Assembly (NCBI RefSeq): GCF_902652985.1
Contig: NC_047015.1
Coordinates: forward strand, 41,974,001-42,038,000
Direction: 5' to 3'
From: Pecten maximus
Taxonomy: Eukaryota
DNA length: 64,000 nt
A model generated the notes under the pieces. The model worked only from the letters and a program-made list of their open reading frames with translations. It searched no databases and was not told the DNA's origin. Both the position numbers and the translations under genes were made by a program. Positions 48,906-51,607 of the stretch are shown here, in pieces (position 1 is the first letter of the stretch; every line of letters starts with the position of its first letter).

Positions 48906-49692
48906 AGAAAGAAAATGGTTCAGAACAGCGAATCGGTATCAAAGAAGGGCACTGTGCAATCCAGCAATAGATTTTATGTCTGAGTGTATGTATTGAGTAC
49001 ATTTGAAAAAAAGCCACAATAAGTACATAAAATTTAGACAGATAACATGCAGTAAAAAATGTAAGACGTAAGTTCGCAGTCACGTAGGGCAACATGGTTC
49101 GATTAATAAACATTTGAGTTTTGGTGAAAGTAATCGCATATCAGGATTCGGTGATAATTCAAATCCCTCATATTAAAGGATCTTATTAACAAGACAAAGA
49201 TTAAATTGACAAAATTCATTTGTGACTTATGTGGCAAGATATATATATATAACATTAAACTAACACTATATGAATCATATGTACTATTAAATATAACTGC
49301 ATGTAACATTTACGCTCATCGATATGTACTATTACTACTATAGAAAATAATACGATACCATGTATGTATATATAATACCAGAAATATGTACACGTATATA
49401 ATATAATTGATTGATATGTATATATGATACCAGATATTAAATTGATACTTATACGATACAGTCATTTAATTGATATTTACGTAGACTCTTATTCCAAGTA
49501 TTTATATGTATATAAAACAATTATATGATGAATAATAATATAAAACAATTATGTAATTACTAATCACACATACATATACAGCTATGAGAGAAGCATCTAA
49601 ATCTGTCATTACAGTTGATATGTTGTAATGTTGGTATCTTTAATAGATAATAGATATTCAATTACTGAGCAACTTGAATCCCCATCCTGAGA

Positions 49693-49809
49693 CAGTGCCA
49701 ATGGCCAAATTCCGTACACACGTCCGTCACCTGACCACTAGTATCGGACAGTTCATAGGTCAAAGTGACCATTCGGCGGACGTATACCAGAATCCAACCA
49801 AAGGAACTG
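49693..49809 (-). ncRNA. Structured RNA hairpin, copy A, in the LINE inter-ORF spacer
   Basis: On the minus strand UGGUUGGAUUCUG pairs with CGGAAUUUGGCCA, GUAUACGUCCG with CGGACGUGUGU, and UGGUCACU with AGUGGUCA. Many G-U pairs, so pairing is strand-specific. Confidence 0.6.
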
Positions 49810-49871
49810 CCATAGAAACAAGTAAATCTCGAAATTAAGTTAGTTTCATCAAGTCATGCATTTATCATTTA

Positions 49872-51000
49872 TTTACGTACCAGAAAAGTGATAACTATGA
49901 CATATACACCAATATCGGAATTAGTAGTTTCATTACTTTGCTAATTGTTAAAAAACTCTAAAATGTTATATGAACTTTACAAAACACAAGTTATTTAACA
50001 TTTGTTTGCTTTAATTTTGGAAAAAAATAGAAACAAAGTGAAACAATTTAATAAACATTTGCAGTCAACGTAAATGATACACTGGCAACATATTACAATA
50101 TACTGTACAACGAAATAGTACCATTTATATTTACTTGTTAAAAATTCTTTGGTAATCGCATCTATTACACACTTTGGATATCAGGTTACCTCCCCTGTCG
50201 AGGTTAGTTTAGTAAATAGTAAAGGGTTCTAAACGCCAAATTTTATGTTGAGCAAGGTGTGCATGATCGAAGAAGAGTAAATATATATGCTGGGCTCCAT
50301 ATCATGACAAAGCAGCTACTACTTTTATTTGCGACGTCGTTCAAACCCAGTTACTTCAAAATATCAAAATTTTAATTTTCTTTCCTGGAAAATCACATAT
50401 ATACTGACATTTTATTTAATGTACACGTCATAGTACAATAATACGTGTATCTTTGTTTTACGTATCAGAAAAGTGTTTAATATGACAGTCACTAATAGCG
50501 GAATCTGTGTTTTCAACACTTGCTATTTGATAAAACTTATATATACATATATATTAATCATACAAAGCACAAGTTTATATTAGCTTTGGGAAAAAAAATA
50601 AGAACGAAGGAAAACAAATAGATAAACATGTATACTGTACAATACACTGTACAACGAAAAAGTACCATCTGTGTTTACTTTTCTTAATTCTTTGGTAATC
50701 ACATCTATATTATACACTTTGTGACATATATTTGATTACCTCCCCTGTTGAGGTCAGTTTTGTATATGTAAGTAAACGTTCTAAACGCCAAATATATGTT
50801 AGCAAGGTGTGCATGAACGAAGAAGAGAATATATATAATAATTATAAGTTTGACTGAAAATCATGACAAAGCAGTTATAATTTGAGTTTCCGAAGTAATT
50901 AAATTTCAGCTACTTCACAATCTGTAAATTTGAATAAACTCACACATTTATTGACATTGCATATACTGTACGCTTCATAGTACAATAATACATTTTGTAC
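49872..51000. repeat. Diverged tandem duplication of about 0.57 kb in the LINE spacer
   Basis: Collinear shared blocks in about 49872-50450 and 50457-51000: TTTACGTAYCAGAAAAGTG, CTGTACAACGAAA.AGTACCAT, ATTCTTTGGTAATCRCATCTAT, TTACCTCCCCTGTYGAGGT, GTTCTAAACGCCAAAT, AGCAAGGTGTGCATGA, ATCATGACAAAGCAG, TCATAGTACAATAATAC. Confidence 0.85.
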
Positions 51001-51185
51001 GATCATTTTGGCGTGTGACAAAAATAAAAGACGATTGTATTTGATAGGGCGCAATTTATGAACAATACTCATCGAGCATAATCTATTGTCGAAAGGATGC
51101 ATATATAAACTACTTATGACATATTTTAATACGAAATCAATTTTTCCTGCTAAAAGTCTTTGTACTAAAACCCCATGACGAGACA

Positions 51186-51297
51186 TTGCCATTGGCTGAC
51201 TCCGTACCCACGCCCGTCTCCTGACCACCACAGTTTGGACAGTTCATAGGTCAATGTGGTCAATTAACGGATGAACACAGAATTCAGCCAATGGAAT
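51186..51297 (-). ncRNA. Structured RNA hairpin, copy B, in the LINE inter-ORF spacer
   Basis: CCAUUGGCUGA/UCAGCCAAUGG, UUCUGUG/UACGGAG, CCGUU/GACGG and UGACCA/UGGUCA pairs. Same apical UUGACCUAUGAACUGUCC as copy A. Confidence 0.6.
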
Positions 51298-51607
51298 TGA
51301 CGTGGAGGGCAACTGATAAGGACTTTATAAGTCATTGTTAAATTTATTGTTTACTGTACCATAAATGTTTAATTCGATAAATAAGTGTAATTTTGAATAC
51401 CGATAATATCTTATAAGTCGTTTGTTCATGTGTACATTATATATATATATATATATATATAAAGTTTCAATTACGTAACTTTAAGCAGGAAAAATTTGCA
51501 GAATTCGAAATTTGTGAATAAGATTTTAATTATACAATACATAAATGTTTTGTACATGTTGACTTGTTAAATGTTTTCGATTGCAACAAAACAGTGGCAG
51601 ATATAAT

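Follow-up and report, generated by a model that had tools for sequence, protein, structure and literature searches.

The 64,000-nucleotide stretch of Pecten maximus DNA analysed here (the window) contains a LINE in which a long spacer separates two large open reading frames (ORFs). How the ORF2 of a LINE comes to be translated has long been an open question, hardest to answer where the intergenic spacer is long. The spacer studied here belongs to the true RNA of the LINE. At its end lies a short ORF, here called the relay ORF; its stop codon overlaps the start of ORF2, and a conserved stem surrounds the overlap. We propose that ORF2 is probably reached by termination-reinitiation from the short ORF and not from ORF1. 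Judged by sequence comparison among related families, the relay ORF and the stem that brackets its end are real and recurrent. Neither is described in the literature that we searched; Repbase, subscription papers and supplements lay outside that search, and an earlier description is possible.

The LINE (Table 1) is flanked at 52924-52915 and 45278-45269 by the 10-nt target duplication AACATTTTCA. A first-pass annotation, made from the letters of the window, had placed the spacer inside an element defined by such duplications with both ORFs intact, and this is borne out by a duplication at both ends, an ORF1 of 373 aa and an ORF2 of 1143 aa. The traits of an APE-type non-LTR retrotransposon are all present, namely APE and RT domains in ORF2 (PF03372, E 5e-12; PF00078, E 3e-30), the 10-nt duplication, a short AAAGT-type tail and staggered 5′ ends among truncated copies. 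The peptide DIESNPGP, encoded at 48650-48627 near the ORF2 N-terminus, fits the 2A pattern D(V/I)ExNPGP; this class of motif is described in PMC3708506, whose accessible text treats the motif by itself as insufficient for skipping. The best PDB match of ORF1 is weak (2yko_A, E 0.017) and no Pfam family scored above the cut-off; type II ORF1s (Tnp22, L1-like) of the CR1 group are covered in the accessible part of PMC4120745. On the basis of the 2A-like motif, the type of ORF1 and the tail, the LINE was assigned as a putative member of the CR1 group (CR1, CR1-Zenon, L2, Crack), the accompanying endonuclease tree being built from elements of the Pecten maximus genome alone. Residues 1-110 of ORF2 had no homologue in the databases searched.

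The insertion site is itself an older, broken LINE of another family (52915-55000 and from 45268 downward, minus strand), whose frame resumes across the target duplication. A third LINE, again of another family, occurs in the window with an intact 981-aa APE-RT ORF (34526-37471, minus strand).

Table 1. Features of the LINE and of its spacer, in window coordinates.
Feature	Position	Strand	Remarks
LINE, putative CR1 group, full-length, young, 7.6 kb	45279..52914	-	10-nt TSD; family copies 98-100% identical
ORF1, 373 aa	51608..52729	-	coiled coil and possible L1-ORF1p-like region
Hairpin B	51179..51312	-	stem-loop of about 110 nt, paralogue of hairpin A
Diverged unit 1	50445..51000	-	about 0.55 kb
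Diverged unit 2	49855..50444	-	about 0.59 kb
Hairpin A	49688..49821	-	covarying stem, conserved apical loop
AT-rich stretch ahead of relay ORF	49114..49687	-	GC 0.25
Relay ORF	48886..49113	-	75 codons from ATG 49113; 69 from conserved ATG 49095
Junction stem, 5′ arm	48921..48940	-	CCGAT core; within relay ORF
Junction stem, 3′ arm	48852..48870	-	ATCGG; ORF2 codons R-I-A-I-G
ORF2, intact, 1143 aa	48905-45474	-	APE and RT domains
ORF2 from conserved ATG	45474..48893	-	leader peptide, 2A-like motif, APE, RT
2A-like motif DMDIESNPGP	48627..48656	-	ahead of APE domain

The spacer runs, as previously annotated and here confirmed by folding and alignment, through hairpin B, two diverged units, hairpin A and an AT-rich part. 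Units 1 and 2 (about 51000-50445 and 50444-49855) agree in 402 of 617 columns, a likeness of about 65-69%, and have neither dispersed copies nor any other match in the genome; the AT-rich part shows a weak 70-75% likeness to one tandem array on C15 and nothing more. What had been called an AT-rich leader does contain an AT-rich stretch, but its final 220 nt are an open reading frame. The description of the spacer as full of AUGs agrees with our count of 70 ATGs. Rfam covariance models for structured RNAs, IRESs and ribozymes, run over 48800-53000, returned 0 matches at E <= 5, and a bacterial promoter scan, not a relevant method here, stayed below shuffle level. AATAAA occurs 30 times on the sense strand of 18 spacers (35 kb), compared with 54 on the antisense strand and 43 in shuffles, a deficit that avoidance of early polyadenylation would predict.

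The animal's own genome (918 Mb) was searched at the DNA level; of 1,435 candidates, the 40 best yielded 43 matches. Among the copies located are nine other 5′-truncated copies that start inside the spacer (at 51497, 51165, 50334, 49748, 49748, 49204, 49072, 49065 and 48951), are colinear with it at 99.5-99.8% identity, have unrelated flanks and in several cases carry their own target duplications. Because nine independent truncated copies carry the spacer colinearly, we conclude that it was part of the reverse-transcribed RNA, and the annotated membership of the spacer in the element holds. The first 110 nt of the spacer are seen in the window copy alone, which is the sole full-length copy found; the matches listed include no second one, and none that joins ORF1 to ORF2 without the spacer. 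A stack of secondary insertions was considered and is ruled out by the colinear copies and by the lack of dispersed copies of the units.

The length of the spacer is unusual, as had been claimed, when compared with vertebrate L1 (257-1,032 bp) but not within its own clade. We surveyed 40 ten-kb regions around ORF1 relatives and 55 further regions, some places being taken twice, and in the 31 locus records of this genome with both ends fixable the spacers measure 510-4,577 nt, with a median of 1,773 (one value, that of L114, is inflated by insertions). A long spacer alone is an ordinary trait of the clade.

The first-pass annotation had the ORF1 stop at 51608, which stands, and the ORF2 start at 48905, which does not: comparison with relatives indicates that their common start is the third ATG, at 48893 (the MGN codon). 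The TAA of the relay ORF falls 5 nt after the A of this ATG. Seven other copies (L002-L007, L180) span both ATGs of the relay ORF, and each keeps it intact. Nucleotide similarity between the window family and the distant family L240 begins at the second relay AUG, 49095, and this AUG is likely to be the working start.

Frames of this kind recur across the clade. In 16 of 16 family representatives an open frame of 42-137 codons stops -2 to +8 nt from the ORF2 start, and in 15 of them it contains an AUG. Runs in the spacer background have a median of 9 codons, and 2.4% of 1,688 reach 55. Shuffling whole windows of the 16 representatives gave a combined p of 5e-17, uncorrected for the choice of the better of two frames; when blocks of 60 nt were shuffled instead and either frame could score, a stricter comparison, individual families gave p 0.02-0.42 and the combined value was 1e-5, in both cases for units that are not fully independent, the 18 families of the stricter comparison sharing ancestry. 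In a wider set, picked by the ORF2 leader motif and the 2A-like motif, the frame has at least 55 codons in 61 of 70 locus records, some of the remaining nine appearing truncated or decayed, and 22 of 23 families include a copy with 62 codons or more, the stops lying at -2 to +13 nt. Among more distant relatives the frame is found in L118, L119, L128, L130 and L240, where its ending is again DNG or ENG; neither L123 nor L129 has an evident open frame, and that of L120 has 36 codons only. The window itself holds a second, broken element of the clade (56740-63000, plus strand; 96-99% like L112, L114 and L270) with a spacer of 1,507 nt, a 60-codon relay ORF at 59194-59376 and the same stop-start overlap.

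The enrichment in open frames is limited to the sense strand and to the last 300 nt of the spacer: ORFs cover 0.94 and 0.87 of the last two 100-nt bins in the sense direction, versus 0.09 and 0.08 in antisense and 0.12 and 0.23 in shuffled sequence. This restriction argues against a relay chain leading from ORF1. A chain of overlapping upstream ORFs across the spacer was accordingly examined and rejected, ORF cover upstream of -400 being at shuffle level. The ORF1 stop and the ORF2 start are 2,714 nt apart, and the earlier judgement that coupling of ORF1 to ORF2 across the spacer is implausible stands.

These data also bear on the possibility that the spacer is inert cargo and its open frame a by-product of pyrimidine-rich sequence. 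Local composition does account for part of the openness (single-family p up to 0.42), and the relay peptides, hydrophobic and poorly conserved across families, look unconstrained: the peptide has no homologue in the databases searched, synonymous and non-synonymous rates do not set the relay frame apart from other frames, and its second-position excess is modest (0.40/0.50/0.42). The openness, however, involves a single sense frame, the one that terminates at the ORF2 start, the similarity of the window family to L240 begins at the relay AUG, and the stem at the junction covaries, so that we regard inert cargo as very improbable. Rather, it is likely that the open frame and the position of its stop matter, and not the peptide.

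Could the spacer instead be an intron, with the short ORF as the last exon of ORF1? In many families a pyrimidine-rich tract does lie in the 5′ part of the short ORF, as this reading would have it. Yet a scan of 23 loci with a generic donor matrix found no conserved donor near the ORF1 stop, and donor-like sites in 35 kb number 14 in sense, 24 in antisense and 10.4 in shuffles. RNA-type contigs, which cover parts of ORF1, spacer and ORF2 and cannot show a single transcript, its ends or its level, contain no GT-AG joint in two families, an absence that is weak as it comes from contigs alone; one of them, from a sister family, runs unbroken for 1.4 kb through spacer sequence, the short ORF and the ORF2 start. 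Taken with the lack of spacer-free copies among the matches listed, these observations make an intron extremely unlikely.

The stop-start junction takes several forms among the families (UAAUG, UGAUG, AUGA, AUGGGUAR, and stops at +8 and +13), and both frame relations between the short ORF and ORF2 occur, a pattern that fits restart and does not fit a single frameshift. We therefore give little weight to the proposal that the short ORF encodes the actual N-terminus of the ORF2 protein, a programmed +1 frameshift at a GGG-UAA stop linking the two frames. Most families do have GGG-UAR at the junction, the leader would in any case be shed at the 2A-like motif, and in one copy (L120) the two frames are fused. 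Other families, however, would require a shift of -1 or +2 with no common slip site, most families keep an ORF2 AUG at the junction, and L128, the sister copy of L120, is unfused.

The second component of the module is a covarying stem of 20-30 bp that brackets the stop-start junction in most families. A CCGAY motif, found post hoc, lies 31-48 nt ahead of the stop in 10 of 21 families, compared with 2.8% of background windows; its pairing partner, ATCGG or ATTGG, lies about 33 nt inside ORF2. Duplexes of cognate arms average -29.6 kcal/mol, versus -18.5 when partners are swapped and -12.4 and -9.6 when the windows are shifted, and the cognate arm is the best partner in 15 of 29 families; in this test L096, L264 and L118 show a weak stem or none. 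When the register was fixed on the 5-nt core in 27 families (L118 and L264 excluded), flank pairing was 0.58 versus 0.44 ± 0.025, and none of 2,000 shuffles was as high. RNAalifold predicted no consensus pair from a plain 23-row alignment. For a 17-pair helix set by hand, 67.7% of cells are paired versus 36-47% in slid controls, with 40 double-sided changes versus 23.0 ± 4.0 in shuffles (0 of 500 as high).

Folding energies concentrate at the same place, junction windows reaching z <= -2 in 17 of 29 cases versus 6, 1 and 0 of 29 at -200, +200 and +400 nt. The junction of the window element has a z of -4.27, and its opposite strand folds nearly as well (z -3.63). The loop that the stem encloses has a median length of 50 nt (30-77), and the AUG region within it is often locally paired rather than consistently unpaired (0.21-0.86). 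One relative (L128) keeps the ATCGG arm without the R..IG peptide motif, which points to RNA, and not peptide, as the conserved feature.

Three families lack an AUG at the ORF2 start altogether, the codon being GAA in L091/L252, ATA in L246 and ACG in L118. The GAA family has six copies with an open ORF2 frame of 1137 codons, its stem is among the strongest, and a later in-frame AUG lies about 30 codons ahead of its 2A-like motif. We count tolerance of ORF2 AUG loss among the demonstrated traits of the clade.

The junction was also weighed as a repressor, in which case ORF2 would start by internal entry at its own AUG while the short ORF and the stem keep output low. An upstream ORF that overlaps the main AUG out of frame is a textbook inhibitory arrangement, and in most families the relay frame does overlap the ORF2 AUG out of frame, with its stop at +5, and the stem encloses that AUG. 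Repression would nonetheless not need a stop within -2 to +13 nt, as found in 23 of 23 families; the frame ends ahead of the AUG in several families (UAAUG, UGAUG); and families without the AUG (L091, L246) retain the frame and have the strongest stems. We consider a repressor role unlikely.

The two large hairpins of the spacer are 76% alike and fold best on the LINE sense strand (hairpin A, z -3.78 versus -2.11 on the reverse strand; hairpin B, -2.68 versus -0.22). Homologues of hairpin A occur in four other lineages about 0.7-1.1 kb upstream of ORF2, where the hairpin is the only segment of the window spacer that can be recognised. An alignment of 10 rows from about five lineages has 98.7% of cells paired and 26 double-sided changes versus 10.1. 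These are real covarying RNA hairpins. Because they are missing from most families (found in 4 of 40 loci of one set and 0 of 40 of another) and group on the endonuclease tree within a single sub-clade, apart from the half copy of one distant family, they are an optional module rather than the core of ORF2 expression. The 3′ arm, matched against the 18S decoding region, has its best site there in four of five hairpin types, yet no better than shuffles. Outside the genome, two pattern matches in metagenome contigs were not the hairpin, and viral contigs yielded no relative.

The hairpins raise the question of whether ORF2 is made from a shorter RNA, one that starts at an internal promoter or is released by cleavage in the hairpin loop and that would have the short ORF as an ordinary 5′ upstream ORF. 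Such an RNA would be compatible with a coupling step. L005 and L006, two of the nine spacer-truncated copies, have their 5′ ends at 49748, inside the hairpin A loop, which hints weakly at a defined RNA end, and in two loci of a distant family (L173:5955-6038 and L174:3971-4186) the hairpin homologue ahead of ORF2 consists of the 3′ half alone, starting at the loop. The L006 junction, however, has microhomology that leaves its exact end uncertain, and L005 and L006 share a private substitution, so the two may not be independent. In four other families no pile-up of copy 5′ ends at an internal start was seen, two of them having scattered ends, most families lack the hairpin, and numerous AUGs separate the hairpin from the relay AUG. 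We accordingly see a shorter RNA as improbable; the half hairpin of L173 and L174 is likely a chimera between families. The earlier suggestion that ORF2 needs another route stands, although the splicing and the internal promoter offered for it found no support in donors, joints or a pile-up of 5′ ends. The route that the sequences do support, a short ORF putatively coupled to the ORF2 start, is beyond those that had been offered.

Several further observations concern the same loci. The loops at 49746-49762 and 51237-51253 (plus strand) carry on the opposite strand two AGGTCA-like half-sites with 1-base spacing, which we take to resemble a DR1 nuclear-receptor site. L006 (G000:C16:24701728) lies a few bases downstream of an apparent tRNA gene, and the target duplication of another copy, L003 (G000:C1:10228618), measures about 33 nt, which is long by the standard of this family. 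The spacers of L106 and L116, which lack hairpins A and B, contain unrelated strand-specific hairpins (z -5 to -8), and long spacers may often hold some strong stem-loop. Finally, the type of relay-ORF ending and ORF2 leader (FYPP/MGC in L097 and L168; DNG/MGN in the window family and L108) disagrees with the endonuclease tree, a hint that families may have exchanged the module upstream of the 2A-like motif.

If ORF2 is expressed by reinitiation from the relay ORF, the following steps can be envisaged. A ribosome would enter onto the relay AUG, in the version that we favour internally in the U-rich stretch in front of it, would melt the stem while translating and would stop 5 nt past the ORF2 AUG, and the small subunit would then restart at the ORF2 start. 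With its loop of about 50 nt, the stem would otherwise shield that start from scanning ribosomes. A ribosome covers about 30 nt of RNA, which the loop exceeds, and the stem could thus close again around the terminated ribosome. The putative 2A-like motif would then likely release the enzyme from the ORF2 leader, and the remaining spacer, hairpins included, may serve as a fast-evolving insulator between ORF1 and the relay module. This model shifts the entry problem 220 nt upstream without solving it.

A bolder version, which we offer tentatively and hold to be rather doubtful, would make this entire clade of invertebrate LINEs tricistronic. ORF2 would have been uncoupled from ORF1 and given to an internally entered relay ORF; a two-armed stem with its loop of about 50 nt would close on the terminating ribosome, holding it for restart even where the AUG is missing; and the R..IG.F motif of the leader would then be largely a footprint of the RNA stem.

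The clade offers a compact module of about 300 nt that combines a short ORF, the overlap of its stop with the ORF2 start, and a covarying stem, together with natural variants in which the AUG is missing, the stop is shifted or the stem is weakened. If coupling is true, the module would represent a eukaryotic termination-reinitiation signal unlike viral TURBS and possibly a new bicistronic expression element, and the long spacers of fish and frog L1 would be worth searching for relay ORFs.

Individual features of this arrangement have counterparts among known elements. As in the 2A-bearing CR1, L2 and Crack LINEs of molluscs, amphioxus and sea urchin, a 2A-like motif lies some 80 residues into ORF2, ahead of the APE domain; most of those elements are reported to lack ORF1, whereas ORF1 and the 2A-like motif coexist here, and the accessible text of that report does not mention an upstream ORF, a short ORF or an intergenic region (PMC3708506). 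The L1 elements of fish, frog, lizard and basal mammals likewise are two-ORF LINEs with an AT-rich or T-rich non-coding spacer, of 257-1,032 bp, for which an IRES has been proposed in silico; in the accessible text their spacers are 1,032 bp at most, share no RNA structure that was found, and come with no description of a short ORF coupled to ORF2 (PMC5381506). In RTE-1 of C. elegans and in SR2, a possible first ORF of 43 aa overlaps the long APE-RT ORF, a short ORF for which an initiation site has been proposed and a function left unconfirmed in the part of the source available (PMC1291365). That short ORF is the 5′-most, with no large ORF1, and is reached by cap scanning; the one described here lies behind ORF1 and 70 ATGs.

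A further comparison is with the TURBS of caliciviruses and influenza B, where stop and restart are a few nucleotides apart, a conserved motif lies some 40-50 nt before the stop, and non-AUG starts are tolerated, calicivirus reinitiation in particular withstanding start-codon changes according to the accessible text (PMC5972666). The TURBS motif UGGGA occurs in 1 of 21 short ORFs, the helix-26 loop of the host 18S rRNA lacks UCCCA, and no duplex enrichment with helix 26 was found. Set against TURBS as the available text presents them, the upstream motif here pairs with the downstream ORF and not evidently with 18S rRNA.

UAAUG translational coupling in SART1, a silkworm non-LTR retrotransposon, is reportedly the subject of Kojima et al. 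2005. Accessible parts of three sources describe the UAAUG of SART1 as coupling ORF1 to ORF2 with the help of RNA structure (PMC3708506, PMC5972666, PMC10275272). As there, a stop-start overlap marks the ORF2 start with RNA structure beside it, and UAAUG itself is present in the relative L097. The overlap of ORF1 stop and ORF2 start seen in SART1 is replaced here by that of a third ORF: ORF1 ends 2.5 kb earlier, a third, short ORF provides the stop that adjoins the ORF2 start, and the stem has an arm on either side of the junction, whereas in SART1, so far as the available text goes, ORF1 itself takes the upstream place and the structure is found downstream. The relay module would thus be a variant of known translational coupling, with a short ORF in place of ORF1 as the upstream partner.
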